Shown here in pieces: positions 11,345 through 64,000 of a stretch of DNA of 64,000 nucleotides (positions are counted from its first letter, which is position 1; each line of letters begins with the position of its first letter). The DNA is from Chloroflexota bacterium (GTDB lineage Bacteria > Chloroflexota > UBA11872), in the NCBI GenBank assembly GCA_022826485.1, contig JAJDUU010000025.1:87986-151985 (forward strand), in the 5' to 3' direction. The notes under the pieces are model-generated. The model saw nothing but the letters and a program-made list of their open reading frames with translations, made no database searches and was not told where the DNA came from. The position numbers were made by a program, and so were the translations under genes.

Positions 11345-12478
11345 ATGGTGTCGATTACCCCAAGCGTGCCGCTGGTGGAGCCGCTCCCCGAACGGCAAGT
11401 CACGGCCGCCCCGACGGTGCCGCAGGTGCCGCCGCTGACCGAGAGCCAAATCGCCCAGTTCAAGCGCGACGGCTTTCTCGTGCTGCCCGACGCCCTCGAT
11501 GCCGAGTTGTGCCGCCGCGCGCGGGACGATATGTGGGAGGCGATCGGCACCTACCTCCCCCGCATGAAGCGCGGCGACCCCTCGACGTGGACCCCGATCA
11601 CCGACGAGGAAACGACCAACTTCCCGGTCGCCTATCACGGCGGCCAGCCCTATTTCGGCGGCGGCGGAACGCGTTACTACGTGCGCAACGGCTCCAAGGA
11701 CTACATGCTCGACCTGGGCCCACGGGCGCTCTGGACCGTGGCCGAGCAACTCCTCGGCAAGGGCACTGTCGTGTGGCCGGCCGGTCGAGACGAGTCCGGG
11801 TCCACCACTGGTCCCTGCCTGATGAGCGACGAGGCGATGGAAGTGTTGTACGGCCAAGACTTGGACTCCTGGCCGTCGCTGCCGACGTTCCAGACGCAGA
11901 CCCTGCGCCTGCCTCAGCAAGGTCTCGAGTTGCTAACCGGGCAGGGCACGCGCGGCCTCTACTGCACGCTGCCGAATAGCCCGGACCCGGGCCCTAACTG
12001 GCGCGGCGCGCATTCAGACGGCTCGTCCTATGGCCGGTTCCGGCTCAACTTCGCAGCCTATATCGACGACCTGCCGCCCGCGTCCGGCGGTTTCACCGTG
12101 TGGCCGGGCAGCCACACGCGGATCTGGGAGCACCACTGGAAGACGTTCCACGCCGGTGAAACACACGTTGGCCGGCGCCACAACGCGCGCAAGCTGGGTG
12201 GCCACCAGCGCTTGGCCGATCCCATCGTTGAAGCCGTGAAGGCCGACACCGCGGCAGTCGACACCTACGGCCCGACCGGCTCGGTGGTGCTGTGGCACCA
12301 CAAGATCCTGCACGTCCCCGGCCAGAACACCTCGAACGACGTGATCCGCCAGGCCACGATCTACGGGTTCATGAAGTCGCCCGAGAGCCTCTCCGACGAG
12401 ATGGCCATGACCGACGCCGGCGGCGACATCTGGCGCGATTGGTCGGACGAAGTGCGCGACATCGACGAGGGGGCGTAG
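11345..12478 (+). CDS. PhyH-family Fe(II)/2-oxoglutarate dioxygenase
   Basis: LTESQIAQFKRDGFLVLP, HSD triad motif, GGFTVWPGSH, GSVVLWHHKILHVPGQN..R. Confidence 0.88.
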   Translation: MVSITPSVPLVEPLPERQVTAAPTVPQVPPLTESQIAQFKRDGFLVLPDALDAELCRRARDDMWEAIGTYLPRMKRGDPSTWTPITDEETTNFPVAYHGGQPYFGGGGTRYYVRNGSKDYMLDLGPRALWTVAEQLLGKGTVVWPAGRDESGSTTGPCLMSDEAMEVLYGQDLDSWPSLPTFQTQTLRLPQQGLELLTGQGTRGLYCTLPNSPDPGPNWRGAHSDGSSYGRFRLNFAAYIDDLPPASGGFTVWPGSHTRIWEHHWKTFHAGETHVGRRHNARKLGGHQRLADPIVEAVKADTAAVDTYGPTGSVVLWHHKILHVPGQNTSNDVIRQATIYGFMKSPESLSDEMAMTDAGGDIWRDWSDEVRDIDEGA

Positions 12479-55882: not shown

Positions 55883-56277
55883 GCGCCAACACCGCGCCGC
55901 CGACGGGCTCCGAGTCTGCGATCTGCCGCGGGCGCCGCCGCAACCGCCCGTGTCGTCGCTGAGGGTTGCGCGACTTCGCCTGGTCGACCGTGAATTGGAC
56001 CAAGACTTACCGAGAAAACGACGGCAATCGGGCAAGGTTCGAATGGTCCGGCTGCTCGGCAACGCAATCGCCTGAGGTCGGATGTGTTCGCGGGGATTGG
56101 ACCGAGGCGTCTGCCGGGGGAGGACCTTGCCAAGCATGGACGACTGCACGGTGGCGCAACTGCCTGCTACGATCACGCGCCGTCACGGTCTCGCCCGCGG
56201 GGTATGCAGGGCGGACTGTCTCAGGAATAGCGACAAGTGCGGGTGGGCGCTGGAATAGCCCCTTCGAAGTGAGATTC

Positions 56278-59200
56278 ATGCGTCTTCGTCTGAAGCTAGC
56301 GGCGGTCGTTGCCACGGTCGCGCTGTCGCTGCTGGTAGTGGCGGCATGCGGCGACGAAGTTCCACCCGCCCCCGATCCGACGCCGACGGCCACCGCCACA
56401 CCTGTGGCGGTCGCGCCGACGCCAACTCCCGAGCCGACACCCACGACCGCCGTCACCCGCGTGGCCGCGGCGCCCACGCCCACTGCAACGCCGATTCCCG
56501 CCACGCCGACGCCGACGCCGACTCCAGAGCCCACGCCCACCCCAACGCCGGAACCGACGGCCACGCCGACGCCGGAGCCCACCGCAACGCCAACGCCCGA
56601 ACCCACGCCCACCCCAACTCCTGCACCCACGCCCACGCCAACCCCGGCGCCCACGCCGACCCCAACGCCCGAGCCCACGCCCACGCCGACTCCGGAACCC
56701 ACCCCAACGCCCGAAGCCACCCCCGCGGTTGCCGTGCCAACCGACCCGGATGCGCCTCTGGCCTTCGATCCCACCGTGGTTCGCGGCACCTTGAGCAACG
56801 GCCTCGTCTACTACGTCAAGCACAACGAGGAGCCGCGCAATCGGGCTCACCTATCGCTGATCGTGAAGGCCGGCTCGATTCTTGAAGAAGAGGATCAGCG
56901 CGGGCTGGCGCACTTCGTCGAACACATGGCGTTCAACGGCACCGAGCGATTCGCCAAGCAGGAAATCGTCGAATACCTCGAATCCATCGGCAGCAACTTC
57001 GGGCCGGACGTCAACGCGTCAACGGGCTTCGACTCCACCCAATACTTCGTCGAGATTCCGACCGACGATCCGGAGATTCTGGAGAAGGCGTTTCAGATTC
57101 TCAGCGAGTGGGCCTTCGCCATCGCGTTCGCGCCGGAAGAAGTGGAGCTCGAGCGCGGCGTGATCCTGGAAGAGTGGCGCTTGAGGCGGGGCTTTGGCGC
57201 GCGATTCCAGGACAACTGGTTTCCGCTGATCTTTGGCGACTCTCGCTACAACGAGCGAAGCACAATTGGGCTGCCCGAAGTCTTCCAGAACGCTCCGGCC
57301 CAGCGCCTGGTGGACTTCTACCAGCAGTGGTACCGGCCCGACTTGATGGCCGTGATCGCCGTGGGCGACTTCGACACCGAGGCGATCGTGGCGAAGGTGC
57401 GGAAGTACTTTGCGCCGCCCCCGGAGGGCGAGGCCGGCCAGGCGGGCGCCGCCGAAGGGCCGCCCACCGATCGGCCACGCTACGGCGTGCCGGATCACGC
57501 CGAGCCGCGGGTCAATGTGTTCAGCGATCCCGAGGCGCCCTCGACGCGGATGTTCCTGGTACGAACGCTCCCGCCCGATTCGGGCGACGACGTGGCGGCG
57601 CTGCGGCGCCTGATTGTGGAGCGATTGGCGTTCATGATGCTCAATGCTCGCTTCTTCGAACGGGGTCAGGCTGAGAATCCCCCGTATCTCGGGGCCAGCG
57701 GCCAGCGCGGGGCGTTTGTCGAGGCCGTCGACCTCGTGCAGTTTGGCGCGTGGGTGGAGCAGGACGCCGTCGAGCCGGGGTTTGCGGCGCTGCTGGAGGA
57801 GACGCAGCGCGCGCGACAGCACGGATTTACCCAGTCTGAGCTGGACCGCGAGAAGACCAACCTGTTGAGTGCCGCGGAGCGCGTCTACAAGGAACGCGAC
57901 CAGTTGGAGTCGGTCAATTTGGCCCGGGAGTACACGGACCACTTTCTCAGCGGCATCCCGGTTCCCGGCGTCGAGGCCGAGTGGGCGCTTTACCAGGCGT
58001 TGCTTCCCCAGATTTCACTGGCGGAGGTCGATGCCGTGGCAGCCACCTGGAGCGAGCCTGGGAATACCGTGCTCCTGGTGATGCGGCCCGAAGGAACCGA
58101 CGGCAAGTCGGATGAAGAGCTGGAGTCCGAGTTGCAGGCCCAACTCGCGGCAGCCGACACGCTGGAGGTCGAGCCCTACGAGGACGAGGTCGCTGACGTG
58201 CCGTTGCTGGCCACGATCCCGGCGGCGGGCAGCATCACCAGTGAAGAAGCCATCGAGTCCATCGACGCCGTCAAGTGGACGCTGTCCAACGGGGTCACGG
58301 TGATCGCGAAGCAGACCGACTTCAAGAATGACGAAGTCATATTCGGCGCGTTCAGTCCGGGCGGACACTCGCTGGTCGACGACGCCGACCACGTGTCCGC
58401 CACCTACGCCGCCACATTGGTCTCGGGGAGCGGCGTGGGCCCACACGACAACGTGGCCCTGGACAAGCTGCTCGCCGGCAAGCGGGTGTCCGTGTCGCCC
58501 TACATCAGCGAGCTGTATGAGGGCTTCAGCGGCAGCTCGTCGCCGGAAGACATGGAAACGCTGTTTCAACTGATCCATCTCTATGCGACCGCGCCCAGGC
58601 TGGACCCGGTGTACTTCTCGAACTTCGAGACCAGCCTGCGCACCAGCGCCGAGACGCGCGCCGACCAACCGGACGCCGTGTTCTCCGACACACTGAACTC
58701 TGCATACAGTCAGAATCACTTCCGTCGCCGGCCACTCACGCTCGAGCTGGTGGACGAGCTCAGCCTGGAGCGCGCGGAAGCGGTCTACGCCGATCGCTTC
58801 GCGGATCTGGGCGACGCGACCTTCGTGTTCGTTGGGGCCTTTGACTGGGACACCCTGCGATCGCTGACGGCAACCTACGTGGCCAGCCTGCCGACCACCG
58901 GGCGCGTCGAGCAGTGGCGGGACGTGGGGGTCGATCGACCGGCCGGGCTGGAGGAGCACGTCGTCCGCAGCGGCATCGAACCTCGCAGCAGGTCGGCGGT
59001 GGTGTTCGCCGGCGACATGGCATGGAGTCTCCAGGAGGCGCTCACGCTCACGGTGGTGGGGGAAATGCTCCAGATCCGTCTGCGCGAGAGTTTGCGAGAG
59101 GCGCTCGGCGGCACCTACAGCGTCGGCGCAATCACCAGAGCCACCCGGTTCCCGGAACCTGAGTTTTTGCTCTATGTGATCTTCGGCAGCGACCCCGCAC

Positions 59201-59508
59201 GCGCGGACGAGCTGTTTGACGCAATCTTCGAGGAGATCGATTGGCTGCGTGACGGCGGCGAGCAGGACTACCTCGACACGGTCAAGGAGCTGCTGCGCAC
59301 GCCTCGCGAGGAGCAGCTCCGCGACAACGGCTTCTGGCGCGGCCAGATTGAATCCGTGGTGCAGCGAGACGGGGAGTTCTCAGCGATTCTCGACTTCGAG
59401 GAGCGGCTGGACGCCGTGACCCTGGAGCAAGTCTCCGCCGCGGCCCGGCTCTACCTCACCGACGACCGCTACCTGCGCGTGGTGCTGCTGCCCGAAGAGG
59501 ACGGGTAG
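56278..59508 (+). CDS. M16 (insulinase/PqqL-like) zinc protease lipoprotein with Pro/Thr stalk
   Basis: LVVAAC lipobox, PTPTPE repeats, [21 protein letters not shown] (HxxEH), [15 protein letters not shown]; start ATG 56278. Confidence 0.92.
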
Positions 59509-59559: not shown

Positions 59560-60621
59560 TCAGTCAAACTCGCTCAGTCGGACCGTGCGGCCTTCCTCGC
59601 TGCTCTTGACGGCGGCGAAGGCGGTCTTGATCGACTTCAAGTTGTCGCGGCCGGAGGTCAGCGGCTCGCGGCCTTCCGTTACCGCGGTCATCATCTCGGC
59701 CATGCTGCCGCCGAAGGCGTCAGGGAACCACCGGCCCTCGATTGGGAAACGCACCCGGCGGTCGGGCTCGTCCTTGCGGGAGATTTCCACCCACTGGGGC
59801 GTGCCCACGATCGATCCCTCGACCCCGTCCAGATACCAGGTGTCGGAGTGAGCCGTTGGACTGGGCACGATGTTGTTGAAGTGCTCGGTGCAGAGCAGGT
59901 CGCCGCTGTCGAAGTGCATGAGCAACGAGTGGCACAGGGGTGAGACCGCGTGCTGCCCCGGGACCAGCACGGTCGCGCAGCTCACGGCGTCTGGTGTACG
60001 CCCGGTGAAGTAGCGAGCCAGGTCGATGTAGTGGACGCCGTGGTCCACGATGTTGAAGTCCTTCAGTCGGCGCCACCAGCGGTCTGGCTGGTCCTGCCAG
60101 GACCTGCGCACGTGGGCCACGCTGTAGAGCGGGCCGCAGACGCCGCGGTCGATCAGCACCTTGATGGCGCGGTGAGCGGGCGCCCAACGCGCCTGCTGAT
60201 TGATCATCAGTGGCACGCCCGCCTGCTCGGCACTGCGGACCATCTGCTTGGCGGACGCCCACTCCATGGCGAACGGCTTCTGCGACAAGATCGGCTTGCC
60301 CGCCGCCGCGATCTTGGGCAGGACGTCGGGCCGCACGCTGGCGTGCACGGCCAGGTCCACCACCTCGACCTCCGGATCGTCGACCAGCGCAGCCAGGCTC
60401 GTGCCGCCGCGTGGAATGCCCCAGCGGCCCCGGGTCGATTCGACGGCTTGGGAATCGATGTCCATGCAGGCGACGACTTCGTAGCCGAAGTCGCGGTAGG
60501 CGGGCAGGTGGGCCGAGTTGGTGATGGCGCCGCAGCCGACGATGCCGATCTTGAGCCGCTGCCCGGTGGGCGGCTTGGGTGCGTAGTCTTCGGGTTTCAG
60601 GCCTAGCTCATCGAGACGCAT
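59560..60621 (-). CDS. Gfo/Idh/MocA family oxidoreductase
   Basis: IGIVGCGAIT..HLPAY, GKPILSQKP, NQQARWAP, DHGVHYID. Confidence 0.88.
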   Translation of the reverse strand: MRLDELGLKPEDYAPKPPTGQRLKIGIVGCGAITNSAHLPAYRDFGYEVVACMDIDSQAVESTRGRWGIPRGGTSLAALVDDPEVEVVDLAVHASVRPDVLPKIAAAGKPILSQKPFAMEWASAKQMVRSAEQAGVPLMINQQARWAPAHRAIKVLIDRGVCGPLYSVAHVRRSWQDQPDRWWRRLKDFNIVDHGVHYIDLARYFTGRTPDAVSCATVLVPGQHAVSPLCHSLLMHFDSGDLLCTEHFNNIVPSPTAHSDTWYLDGVEGSIVGTPQWVEISRKDEPDRRVRFPIEGRWFPDAFGGSMAEMMTAVTEGREPLTSGRDNLKSIKTAFAAVKSSEEGRTVRLSEFD

Positions 60622-60836
60622 ACCAAGCCACCGTCACCTGCGGCACCACCCTGCGTACCGTGCCACGCCGGCCGGTCGGGCGAGCAAGTCCGATTTGGGC
60701 GGGTGTCGCCTCGGTGGCAGATGGCGCGCCCGACGGAAAAATGCGCCAGCACGGCTTGCAATTTTGCTCCCCAGACCTGTGCCCATAAGCCATAATCAGG
60801 CATCCGCACACTCGTCTCTCTACGAGGCAGGGTCAC

Positions 60837-61970
60837 ATGGCAACCGATACCTCCAGCGTGGCGCAGGTTCCGCGGCTCACCACCGAGCAGGTCGCCCAGT
60901 TCAAGCGCGACGGCTTCCTGGTCTTGCCGGCAGTGCTCGACCTCGAGCTCTGCCGCCAAACCCGCGAGCAGATGTGGGAGTTGATCGCCGAGCATCGCCC
61001 CAGCATGAAGCGGGATGACCCCGAGACATGGCTCCCATTCTCCGACGAGGAGCGGGAGGGCTACACGCGGCCCGAGGGCGGCGGCGACCCCTACTTCGGC
61101 GGCGGCGGGCACCGGCTCTACATTCGCAACGGCGCCGAAGAGCTGCTGCTCGACCTGGCGCCGCGCGCCATGTTCGACGTTGCCGAGCAGCTATTGGGCG
61201 AGGGTGAGGTCATTTGGCCGAACGGTCTCGACGAGACCAACACCACCATCGGTCCGGCGCTCCTGACCGAGGACCACATCACCAGCATGGAGGTCCACCT
61301 GGGGCCGGAGTCCGACAAGTGGCTCGGCAAGGCTACGCGCAAGACCGAACAGGTGCGCCTGCCCAAGACCGGTCCCGTGTGGGCGACCGCCCAGGGATCG
61401 CGCGGTCTCTATTGCACGCTGCCCAACAGTCCGGGCGGCCGCGTCAACAAGTACCCGTACGCCAAGGTCCAGCCGAGCGCCAGGTATCCCTCGGCTCACG
61501 CGGCGGAAGGCATGTATGAGAGCCGGCGGCGGCTCCAGATCGCGGCCTACTTCGACGACCTGCCGCTTGGCGCCGGCGGCCTCCACCTGTGGCCCGGCAG
61601 CCATCAGCGGATTTGGGACCGGTGGTCCGCGATGCACCGCGGCGACATCCCGTCCAACGACGACTGGCTGAGCCTGAGGCATTCCGCGGGAAAGTTCGAC
61701 GGCTACGTCACGCCGCCGATCTCGGAGATCAAGGAAGACACGCCGGTCGTGGACACCCACGGACCTTGCGGCTCGGTGGTCCTCTGGCACGCCAACATGC
61801 TGCACATGGCGGGGCAGAACACGAGCAGCGACATCATCCGTCAGGCCACGATCTACGCCTACGACAAGACCGAGGAATCCCTCCCGGACGAGTTGGCGTT
61901 GGCCTACCCGGACGGCGACCTGTGGCGCGACTGGTCCGACGAGCTGCGCGCGACCGAAACGGCGAGCTAG
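60837..61970 (+). CDS. PhyH-family Fe(II)/2OG enzyme with atypical HAAE motif, copy 1
   Basis: QFKRDGFLVLP, GGLHLWPGSH, GSVVLWHANMLHMAGQN..IRQ; homologous to 11345-12478. Confidence 0.85.
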   Translation: MATDTSSVAQVPRLTTEQVAQFKRDGFLVLPAVLDLELCRQTREQMWELIAEHRPSMKRDDPETWLPFSDEEREGYTRPEGGGDPYFGGGGHRLYIRNGAEELLLDLAPRAMFDVAEQLLGEGEVIWPNGLDETNTTIGPALLTEDHITSMEVHLGPESDKWLGKATRKTEQVRLPKTGPVWATAQGSRGLYCTLPNSPGGRVNKYPYAKVQPSARYPSAHAAEGMYESRRRLQIAAYFDDLPLGAGGLHLWPGSHQRIWDRWSAMHRGDIPSNDDWLSLRHSAGKFDGYVTPPISEIKEDTPVVDTHGPCGSVVLWHANMLHMAGQNTSSDIIRQATIYAYDKTEESLPDELALAYPDGDLWRDWSDELRATETAS

Positions 61971-61987
61971 ACCTATCGACGTGAGGA

Positions 61988-62015
61988 CGCAGGCCGCCGC
62001 CGGCGGTGGCCTGCG
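61988..62015 (+). terminator. GC-rich hairpin after PhyH copy 1 (no U tract)
   Basis: CGCAGGCCGCCGC / GCGGTGGCCTGCG; repeated at 63493-63520. Confidence 0.45.
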
Positions 62016-62030
62016 CGCCGCGCGGTGGTC

Positions 62031-62243
62031 CAGGTGCCGACGCTGATCTAATCGGCGCGTGAGCGCCGGGCCTACGCGCTCGGCGGCATGGGCTGGTCGG
62101 CGCAGGCCTTCACCATCGACTGGTGTCGCGAGCAGGGCATGGACCTCATCCCCGGCGACGGCTATCTGCGGGCCTGCGTGCCCGCCGTCGTCGGCACCTG
62201 GGCCGCGGCCCTGGCTCGCTTTGGGATCCAGAGCTTCAGCGAC
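62031..62243 (+). pseudogene. Gamma-glutamyltransferase gene fragment
   Basis: Aligns to 63770-63982 (VPTLI*SARERRAYALGGMGWSAQAFTIDWCRE...); TAC changed to TAA at 62049; 5' part deleted. Confidence 0.85.
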
Positions 62244-62341
62244 AATGCGCCGGCGCGCCTTGAAGTTGCGCTCCCCAGCCGCACGTCCATAAGTCATAAT
62301 CAGGCATCCGCCAACTGGTCTCTCAACGAGGCAGGGATCCC

Positions 62342-63475
62342 ATGGCAACGCCATTCTCCAGCGTGGCGCAAGTTCCGCGGCTCACCACCGAGCAGATCGC
62401 CCAGTTCAAGCGCGACGGTTTACTGGTCTTGCCGGCAGTGCTCGACCCCGAGCTCTGCCGCCAGACCCGCGAGCAGATGTGGGAGCTGATCGCCGAGCAT
62501 CGACCCAGCATGAAGCGGGATGACCCTGCGACATGGCTGCCCTTCTCCGATGAGGAGAAGGACGGCTTTCAGCGCCCCCAAGGCGGCGGCGACCCCTACT
62601 TCGCCGGCGGCGGCCACCGGCTCTACGTCCGCAATGGCGCCGAAGAGCTGCTGCTCGATCTGGCGCCCCGCGCCATGTTCGACATCGCCCAACAGTTGCT
62701 GGGCGACGGCGAGGTCGTGTGGCCCGGCGGCCTGGACGAGACCAACACCACCATCGGTCCGGCCCTCCTGACCGAGGACAACATCTCCACCATGAAGGTC
62801 CACCTGGGTCCGGAGGCCGGGAATTGGCTCGGCCAGGCCACGCGCAAGACCGAGCAGGTGCGCCTGCCCAAGACCGGTCCTGTCTGGGCCACTGGCCAGG
62901 GATCACGCGGGCTCTACTGCACGCTGCCCAACAGCCGTGGTGGCCGCGTCAACAAATACCGAAACGCCAAGGTCCAGCCCAGCGCCAAGTACCCCTCGGC
63001 ACACGCGGCCGAGGGCATGTACGAGAGCCGGCGGCGACTCTCGATCGCGGCATACTTCGACGACCTGCCGCTCGGCGCCGGCGGCCTGCATCTCTGGCCC
63101 GGCAGCCACCAGCGGATTTGGGACCGGTGGTCCGCCATGCACCGCGGCGACATCCCGTCCAATGACGACTGTCTGAGCCTGCGGCATTCCGGCGGCAAGT
63201 TCGACAGCTACGTCACGCCGCCGATCTCCGAAATCAAGGAGGACACGCCGGTCGTGGACACCCACGGGCCGTGCGGCTCGGTGGTCCTGTGGCACGCCAA
63301 CATGCTGCACATGGCGGGCCAGAACACCACCAGCGACGTGATCCGCCAGGCCACGATCTACGGCTACAACAAGACCGAGGAGTCCCTCCCGGACGAGTTG
63401 GCCCTGGCCTACCCGGACGGCGACCTGTGGCGCGACTGGTCAGACGAGGTGCGCGCGACTGAAACGGCGAGCTAG
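62342..63475 (+). CDS. PhyH-family Fe(II)/2OG enzyme with atypical HAAE motif, copy 2
   Basis: 377 aa, about 40 substitutions relative to copy 1 by manual count (roughly 89% identical). Confidence 0.85.
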   Translation: MATPFSSVAQVPRLTTEQIAQFKRDGLLVLPAVLDPELCRQTREQMWELIAEHRPSMKRDDPATWLPFSDEEKDGFQRPQGGGDPYFAGGGHRLYVRNGAEELLLDLAPRAMFDIAQQLLGDGEVVWPGGLDETNTTIGPALLTEDNISTMKVHLGPEAGNWLGQATRKTEQVRLPKTGPVWATGQGSRGLYCTLPNSRGGRVNKYRNAKVQPSAKYPSAHAAEGMYESRRRLSIAAYFDDLPLGAGGLHLWPGSHQRIWDRWSAMHRGDIPSNDDCLSLRHSGGKFDSYVTPPISEIKEDTPVVDTHGPCGSVVLWHANMLHMAGQNTTSDVIRQATIYGYNKTEESLPDELALAYPDGDLWRDWSDEVRATETAS

Positions 63476-63544: not shown

Positions 63545-64000
63545 GTGACGGTCACGACCTTCCTGGGCGACGAAAGCCCGGCGAAACGCTCGGCGCACGA
63601 CACGCGCCCCGTGGTGATGGGCCGTCGCGGCGTCGTCACATCGGGTCACTACCTGGCCACGGCCGCCGGCTTCCGGATCATGGAGCAGGGCGGCAACGCC
63701 ATCGACGCAGCCGCGGCCATGTGCTTCTGCCTCAACCTGCTGGAGCCGCAGAGCAACGGGCTGGCCGGTGAGGTGCCCACGCTCATCTACTCGGCGCGCG
63801 AGCGCAAGGTCTACGCGCTCAGCGGCATGGGCTGGTCGGCGCAAGCCTTTACCATCGACTGGTGCCGCGAGCACGGCATCGACCTGATCCCCGGCGACGG
63901 CTATCTGCCGGCCTGCGTGCCCGCCGTGGTCGGCACCTGGACCGCGGCCCTGGCGCGTTTCGGCACCCTGAGCTTCGGTGAGGTCGCGCAGCCCGCCATC
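63545..64000 (+). CDS. ggt: Gamma-glutamyltransferase family protein (5' part, runs off the window)
   Basis: Not in ORF track; manual translation TRPVVMGRRGVVTSGHYLATAAGFRIMEQGGNAIDAAAA..LEPQSNGLAGE..CVPAVVGTW..LARFGTLSFGEVAQPAI. Confidence 0.9.
   Translation, partial: MTVTTFLGDESPAKRSAHDTRPVVMGRRGVVTSGHYLATAAGFRIMEQGGNAIDAAAAMCFCLNLLEPQSNGLAGEVPTLIYSARERKVYALSGMGWSAQAFTIDWCREHGIDLIPGDGYLPACVPAVVGTWTAALARFGTLSFGEVAQPAI

Follow-up and report, generated by a model that had tools for sequence, protein, structure and literature searches.

Two tandem genes near the end of a 64,000-nucleotide stretch of Chloroflexota DNA (contig JAJDUU010000025.1 of assembly GCA_022826485.1; the whole stretch is called the window below) encode PhyH-family Fe(II)/2-oxoglutarate oxygenases in which the acidic residue of the signature motif stands three positions past the proximal histidine, in the order His-Ala-Ala-Glu (HAAE). 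We consider it likely that the two proteins, copy A (60837..61970, + strand) and copy B (62342..63475, + strand), are hydroxylases with an H-x-x-E triad, a class confined to Chloroflexota among the loci examined, and that the shift of the glutamate to +3 is most likely a change of spacing that an otherwise ordinary hydroxylase tolerates. In textbooks, 2-oxoglutarate oxygenases are recognised by the facial triad H-x-D/E...H, and the motif H-x-A/G is used in mining genomes for halogenases. A preliminary description of this DNA had put the pair forward as candidate halogenases, with the caveat that the glutamate could still bind iron as HxxE. It is the caveat that the present data favour over the headline, the glutamate being invariant in its class and homologous to a ligand glutamate; ligation of iron by Glu224 would follow from this homology and conservation.

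Each tandem gene is an open reading frame (ORF) of 377 codons, and the products score 51.5 bits (copy A) and 53.3 bits (copy B) against the Pfam PhyH model PF05721, whose curated cut-off is 22 bits. Copies A and B share 89% of their residues, and each matches a paralogue in the same window (11345..12478, + strand; 377 residues, 48.7 bits) at 53% identity. Around the proximal histidine both copies read YPSAHAAEGMYE, with the core SAHAAEG, while the paralogue has GAHSDG, a canonical H-S-D motif. The codons for His221-Ala222-Ala223-Glu224 occupy 61497..61508 (+) in copy A and 63002..63013 (+) in copy B, so that those for His221 begin at 61497 and 63002 and those for Glu224 at 61506 and 63011. The acid two residues past the proximal histidine that goes with membership in PhyH is thus absent: position +2 is Ala223, and the acid, Glu224, is at +3. 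His221 is the sole histidine in its stretch of copy A. The distal histidine, His323 in MLHMAGQN, and Arg335 in IRQ are present in both tandem copies (61803..61841, +, in copy A). Family knowledge suggests that they serve as the third iron ligand and as the putative binder of the 2-oxoglutarate C5-carboxylate, and HMMER aligned MLHMAG with the LMHGS and IIHGS stretches of EctD and GriE. Ahead of the motif lies an inserted loop of 12 residues, GGRVNKYPYAKV (residues 200-211; 61434..61469, +, in copy A), which falls in a gap of the paralogue in the alignment. The altered motif with its exact codon positions, the retained histidine and arginine, and the extra loop had all been described before, and all of them stand.

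A word-seeded search returned 247 relatives at E up to 0.001. The best 120 of the 247 were aligned with the three window proteins to give 123 rows, at least one of which repeats copy B. The rows divide into three motif classes, with H-x-D in 29 (mostly AHSDG), H-x-E in 47 (AH[AS]EA) and H-x-x-E in 46, and a single row with glutamine in place of the histidine. In the H-x-x-E class the residue at +3 is glutamate in 46 of 46 rows, and the residue at +2 is glycine (36 rows), alanine (8), cysteine (1) or serine (1). Position +1 is occupied by serine, alanine, cysteine or glycine in this class, and the corresponding x of the canonical rows is serine or alanine. When a one-residue gap is allowed, the acid column is filled in all 123 rows (glutamate in 94, aspartate in 29). 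The remaining candidate active-site residues are near-invariant, with His221 conserved in 122 rows, His323 in 122 and Arg335 in 123. The extra loop is peculiar to the H-x-x-E class, where 18 rows have it (reading AHAAEG, AHC[GA]EG, AHSCEG or AHASEG) and 28 lack it; loop and motif are therefore separable. The row with the exchanged histidine, P0079, comes from another genome and belongs to the H-x-E clade; it reads AQAEA and may either be inactive or bind metal in a different way.

A profile search over 1.84 billion representatives returned 1098 proteins at E up to 0.001. Among the best 150 of these, 86 stretches covered the motif, of which 62 were H-x-D, one H-x-E, three H-x-x-E and 20 other or misaligned, and this preponderance identifies H-x-D as the background state. 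Judged by these alignments, the H-x-x-E motif is limited to the subfamily described here. All 26 H-x-x-E loci lie in Chloroflexota records, and the class was found solely in this phylum among the loci examined. Loci of the other classes, 19 with H-x-E and 31 with H-x-D, are mostly in Gemmatimonadota, Latescibacterota and Poribacteria records, with a few from other bacteria.

Trees were calculated with FastTree (125 rows) and, in quick mode, with IQ-TREE (62 family rows, with 13 more distant relatives as the root). Both methods unite the H-x-D proteins in one clade, with a support of 90 in the Shimodaira-Hasegawa-like approximate likelihood ratio test (SH-aLRT), and make the H-x-E and H-x-x-E proteins jointly its sister group (98). 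Within the latter, the H-x-E proteins are, again by both methods, a single clade (99) that is nested in a grade of H-x-x-E proteins in the unconstrained tree, where the HAAE group is its sister (95). After removal of the motif and loop columns, monophyly of the H-x-x-E proteins was not rejected and was even slightly better (log-likelihood difference +2.42; p = 0.541 in the approximately unbiased test), and we therefore make no claim as to which of the two motifs arose first. With either arrangement the glutamate is common to the H-x-E and H-x-x-E classes, and what separates them is an insertion or deletion of one residue between histidine and glutamate; the close relatives that carry glutamate at the canonical ligand position are 62-64% identical in sequence. 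Because the H-x-E and H-x-x-E proteins group together (98) and share this residue, we regard Glu224 as homologous to the canonical ligand glutamate. The paralogue at 11345 falls in the H-x-D clade, which spans several phyla, together with Latescibacterota, Gemmatimonadota and Poribacteria proteins. The HAAE pair is therefore not derived from it within this genome, contrary to the preliminary description, and the comparison of H-x-D and HAAE relatives that had been suggested there goes against its halogenase claim, as the glutamate at +3 is invariant and shared with the H-x-E proteins.

The AlphaFold2 model of copy A, calculated from a 47-row alignment, has a mean predicted local distance difference test score (pLDDT) of 92.2 and a predicted TM-score of 0.91. 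Confidence is lower in the inserted loop (mean pLDDT of 62 for residues 201-210) than in the block that holds the motif (89). The model has the double-stranded β-helix fold of solved PhyH members. A Foldseek search with it returned GriE, H11, PHYHD1 and KanJ at E of about 4e-10. In the VIA structural comparison, whose alignments span 200-228 residues, the highest score was obtained for GriE (Z = 16.6, root mean square deviation 3.7, 213 residues aligned), followed by the proline hydroxylase H11 (15.6), SnoN (15.1), PHYHD1 (15.0), EctD (14.7), PhyH (14.3), EvdO2 (14.3) and AviO1 (14.2). Similarity to solved proteins is marginal at the level of sequence, with a best E of 7.6e-4 for phmmer against the Protein Data Bank (PDB) sequences; phmmer and the 47-row profile together gave weak matches to GriE (3.7e-5), PHYHD1 (4.4e-5) and EctD (3.7e-4) whose alignments are not dependable around the proximal motif. 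One alignment, which paired AHAEG with WHVEDG of EctD, was not used, as the latter lies downstream of the true H-S-D motif of EctD. In the model of copy A, DSSP assigns His221 to an isolated bridge that is followed by coil, so that no regular strand would turn the side chain at +3 away, a point of little weight. A complex prediction for copies A and B with two iron atoms scored 0.00 and produced no contacts, a result that is neutral on binding and ligation.

GriE, H11, EctD, PHYHD1 and PhyH thus resemble the HAAE pair in Pfam family and in fold (Z of 14.3-16.6), and the proximal histidine, the distal histidine and the arginine are conserved among them as in the pair. The HAAE proteins differ from the solved PhyH hydroxylases in carrying the carboxylate at +3 instead of +2 and in being about 100 residues longer (377 versus 245-290). 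In the site that we propose, iron would be held by His221, Glu224 and His323, and Arg335 would bind 2-oxoglutarate. One small residue, alanine here and glycine in most relatives, would have been inserted in the loop after the histidine, which would explain why the carboxylate is at +3. Several solved PhyH-type hydroxylases act, according to their PDB entry titles, on free small zwitterionic metabolites. We also infer a reaction type, a substrate class and a coupling to a dehydrogenase: the oxygenase would most likely hydroxylate a small polar metabolite, and the alcohol produced could be oxidised by the enzyme encoded next to copy A on the opposite strand, a Gfo/Idh/MocA NAD(P)-dependent oxidoreductase (59560..60621, - strand, divergent from copy A; PF01408 5.3e-17, PF02894 4.5e-10). 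With an M16 peptidase, a gamma-glutamyltransferase (GGT) and an AstE/AspA-type deacylase as catabolic neighbours, the pair may take part in degrading a small metabolite, either nitrogen-containing or sugar-like.

The two oxygenase genes arose by a tandem duplication whose boundaries are still visible. The first unit spans 60740..62243 (+) and the second begins at 62244, with a period of 1504-1505 nucleotides. Direct repeats link 60740-60832 with 62244-62336 (81% identity) and 60830-61129 with 62335-62634 (88%), which places the start of the duplication 97 nucleotides upstream of the oxygenase start codon. Between the copies lies a piece of 211 nucleotides (62032..62242, +) that matches the interior of the intact GGT gene, with 88% identity to 63771-63981, and its translation resembles GGT residues. 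This remnant marks where the two units join, and the duplicated unit must accordingly have begun ahead of the oxygenase and ended within the 5′ part of the GGT gene. A longer GGT fragment lies between the oxygenase copies of another locus, L005. Two HAAE copies are also found in the Chloroflexota assemblies represented by L005, L006, L007, L008 and L011, and one copy in L002, L003, L004 and L009; the duplication is no assembly artefact, nor is it private to this genome. The ratio of nonsynonymous to synonymous substitution rates (dN/dS) is 0.16 between copies A and B and ranges from 0.06 to 0.26 among orthologues, with dS values of up to 0.47. All 15 orthologous HAAE copies, two from the window and 13 from loci L002-L011, are intact and carry an identical motif of 12 residues. 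Such identity at this level of synonymous divergence argues that the HAAE motif is no chance event, and the low dN/dS values together with the intact reading frames indicate that both copies have been kept by purifying selection.

Several observations weigh against reading the pair as H-x-x-E hydroxylases. The residue at +2 is glycine or alanine in 44 of the 46 H-x-x-E rows, as it would be in a halogenase, which is equally what a tight bulge would need. No H-x-x-E 2-oxoglutarate oxygenase was found in the open-access literature by string matching, the only technique applied, and the matches for HXXE concerned EfeO and M16 peptidases; no solved example of this geometry can thus be cited. No NCBIfam model reached its cut-off, the best being ectoine hydroxylase with 21.5 bits against a required 336.5. 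Across the genome as a whole, Gfo/Idh/MocA genes are only modestly enriched around PhyH genes: its 3.17 Mb hold 39 PhyH (PF05721) and 47 Gfo/Idh/MocA (PF01408) matches, and eight of the 39 PhyH genes have a Gfo/Idh/MocA gene no more than 3 kb away where 3.3 would be expected, yet 60 of 2000 random placements gave a count as high, and the PhyH genes are themselves clustered. The small residue at +2 is also what lends appeal to the idea that the proteins are free-standing Fe(II)/2-oxoglutarate halogenases, in which halide would occupy the iron at Ala223 and Glu224 would have a second-sphere or substrate-binding role. The motif is literally H-x-A, and the PhyH fold is common to known halogenases. 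In SyrB2, WelO5 and BesD an alanine or glycine replaces the carboxylate two residues past the proximal histidine, while the distal histidine and 2-oxoglutarate binding are kept. The likeness to these enzymes, at the level of motifs, lies in the small residue at +2, the retained distal histidine and the putative 2-oxoglutarate binding; in the HAAE pair the small residue is immediately followed by an invariant glutamate, and the genes have no biosynthetic context. We consider halogenation highly unlikely. The canonical sister group, H-x-E, has the same glutamate, and serine and cysteine occur at +2 as well, in one row each. No carrier protein, nonribosomal peptide synthetase (NRPS) or polyketide synthase (PKS) was detected by Pfam scans of the window neighbours and of 74 proteins from 12 related loci, and the genes have catabolic surroundings that vary from clade to clade. 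The presence of four H-x-x-E paralogues among the 39 PhyH matches is the pattern of a catabolic expansion. No halogenase was present among the 50 structural matches listed, which is mere absence from a list. The halogenase headline of the preliminary description is on these grounds unsupported. Departures from the +2 carboxylate do not in themselves make a halogenase: HygX, the hygromycin orthoester synthase (PDB codes 4XC9, 4XCA and 4XCB), is PhyH-like and has its acidic ligand off position +2, in the motif H-x-G...E-x3-H, yet it is an oxygenase that forms an orthoester and no halogenase (reviewed in PMC13374393), and AspH, the human aspartate/asparagine beta-hydroxylase, hydroxylates although it lacks the usual carboxylate ligand (PMC13168262).

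These two enzymes also bear on a site in which only the two histidines would hold the metal, with Glu224 binding a metal-coordinated water or the substrate, and oxidation proceeding without halide. They illustrate that departures from the triad exist in the superfamily (PMC13168262, PMC13374393); a shift by one residue could put the carboxylate beyond direct ligation, and the data presented here do not separate a first-sphere from a second-sphere Glu224. We nevertheless judge this arrangement unlikely, as the same glutamate forms part of a canonical H-x-E motif in the sister clade and no relocated acid is evident. In HygX the residue at +2 is glycine and the relocated glutamate stands four residues ahead of the distal histidine; in the HAAE pair the glutamate is displaced by one residue only, and the position four before His323 is Ala319 (WHANMLH), so that the HygX-type glutamate is absent. 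HygX also belongs to an antibiotic gene cluster, unlike the HAAE pair. Copy A matches two relatives of HygX in fold, EvdO2 and AviO1 (Z of 14.3 and 14.2). AspH is a multidomain eukaryotic protein of another subfamily with two histidine ligands only, whereas the HAAE pair has an adjacent glutamate. A more speculative proposal, to which we assign a small chance, is a new kind of site in which a hemilabile glutamate at +3 leaves the iron during turnover and thereby frees a coordination position that an anion or a heteroatom of the substrate could take. If this were true, chemistry beyond plain hydroxylation, such as halogenation or another anion rebound, desaturation or cyclisation, could result, with the glycine or alanine at +2 providing room. 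Finally, the non-canonical spacing of the triad and a recent duplication that has left a gene remnant between the copies might suggest decaying, catalytically dead duplicates that the altered motif has inactivated. We give this almost no credence in view of the dN/dS values of 0.06-0.26, the 15 intact copies, the conservation of His221, Glu224, His323 and Arg335, and the abundance of the H-x-x-E motif, which is found in 46 of 123 rows and in four paralogues of this genome.

As hydroxylases with an H-x-x-E triad, the HAAE pair would most likely be ordinary catabolic enzymes in a genome whose complement of PhyH genes is greatly expanded. The class is relevant both to enzymologists and to those who mine genomes for H-x-A/G halogenases, because motif mining would call false halogenases in a group as populous as this. 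The occurrence of H-x-D, H-x-E and H-x-x-E within one family also offers a natural series on the tolerance of the iron site to spacing.

The genes around the pair are arranged in the order M16 peptidase (+), Gfo/Idh/MocA oxidoreductase (-), oxygenase A (+), GGT remnant, oxygenase B (+) and GGT (+), and beyond the latter follow an AstE/AspA-like deacylase (-) and a two-domain glyoxalase/VOC protein (-). The M16 (insulinase-type) peptidase is encoded by a large ORF (55966-59508, + strand) with an uncertain start codon; its N-terminal part contains a hydrophobic stretch and then a low-complexity linker rich in proline, threonine, glutamate and alanine (about 56400-56800). For the Gfo/Idh/MocA protein the best NCBIfam model is inositol 2-dehydrogenase, with 89 bits far under the cut-off of 355. 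The GGT gene (63545..64000, +) runs past the end of the window, and the part inside the window scores 9.6e-23 against PF01019; the whole gene encodes 613 residues (L001 8531-10372; PF01019 3.2e-116).

Among the ten HAAE loci L002-L011, GGT lies beside the oxygenase in eight and Gfo/Idh/MocA in seven, and the linkage to both genes that had been noted earlier thus holds as synteny in close relatives. As these genomes are close kin, the synteny tells little about function. Moreover, the linkage to GGT is not universal within the HAAE group, since it is missing from L010. In this Chloroflexota locus an HAAE orthologue with 79% identity lies directly downstream of an H-S-D paralogue, without M16, GGT or AstE genes. 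A more telling hint at function is the recurrence of Gfo/Idh/MocA genes across the motif classes, as they adjoin members of all three, including those of other phyla. In L024 (H-x-E) the gene comes immediately after the oxygenase and has the same orientation; it is convergent in L047, L053 and eight further H-x-D loci, and divergent in L063. An ORF of 706 residues in L024 was considered as a PhyH-Gfo fusion and dismissed, its first half being an off-frame artefact; PhyH and Gfo are separate genes there, in this order. A search among longer proteins (661-2000 residues) turned up no relative, which is weak evidence. The other H-x-x-E paralogues adjoin genes for hydantoinase/oxoprolinase, S-Me-THD-like proteins, nitrile hydratase or further PhyH proteins. 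Those with HAGE are flanked, in L028 and L033, on one side by a pair of hydantoinase/oxoprolinase and S-Me-THD-like genes and on the other by a nitrile hydratase alpha/beta operon; they are arranged in tandem in L031, L033 and L036, and an alpha-2-macroglobulin gene is nearby.

The PhyH genes of this genome have no counterpart in 14 reference genomes, in which zero matches were obtained. Six of them belong to the subfamily described here (HAAE twice, HSGE, HAGE and HSD twice), four of which are H-x-x-E. Abundant PhyH-domain proteins have been reported for Poribacteria (PMC3909097), and PhyH genes of SAR202 Chloroflexota have been discussed as catabolic (PMC5395668). A further PhyH paralogue of 262 residues lies outside the window (contig C41:274495-275073, - strand; L078:4346-5131, - strand). 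It reads LHGG and has no acid at +2, and at the distal histidine it has the sequence E-A-L-T-H, which completes a HygX-type H-x-G...E-x3-H motif. Its nearest solved structures are those of HygX (4XC9 and 4XCB, E of about 4e-8). A search with this protein returned 1921 proteins at E up to 0.001, with LHGG in nearly all of the best 120, and proteins of this type occur widely in records from Chloroflexota, Armatimonadota, Planctomycetota and Poribacteria. Judged by the H-x-G rule, this paralogue resembles a halogenase more closely than the HAAE pair does.

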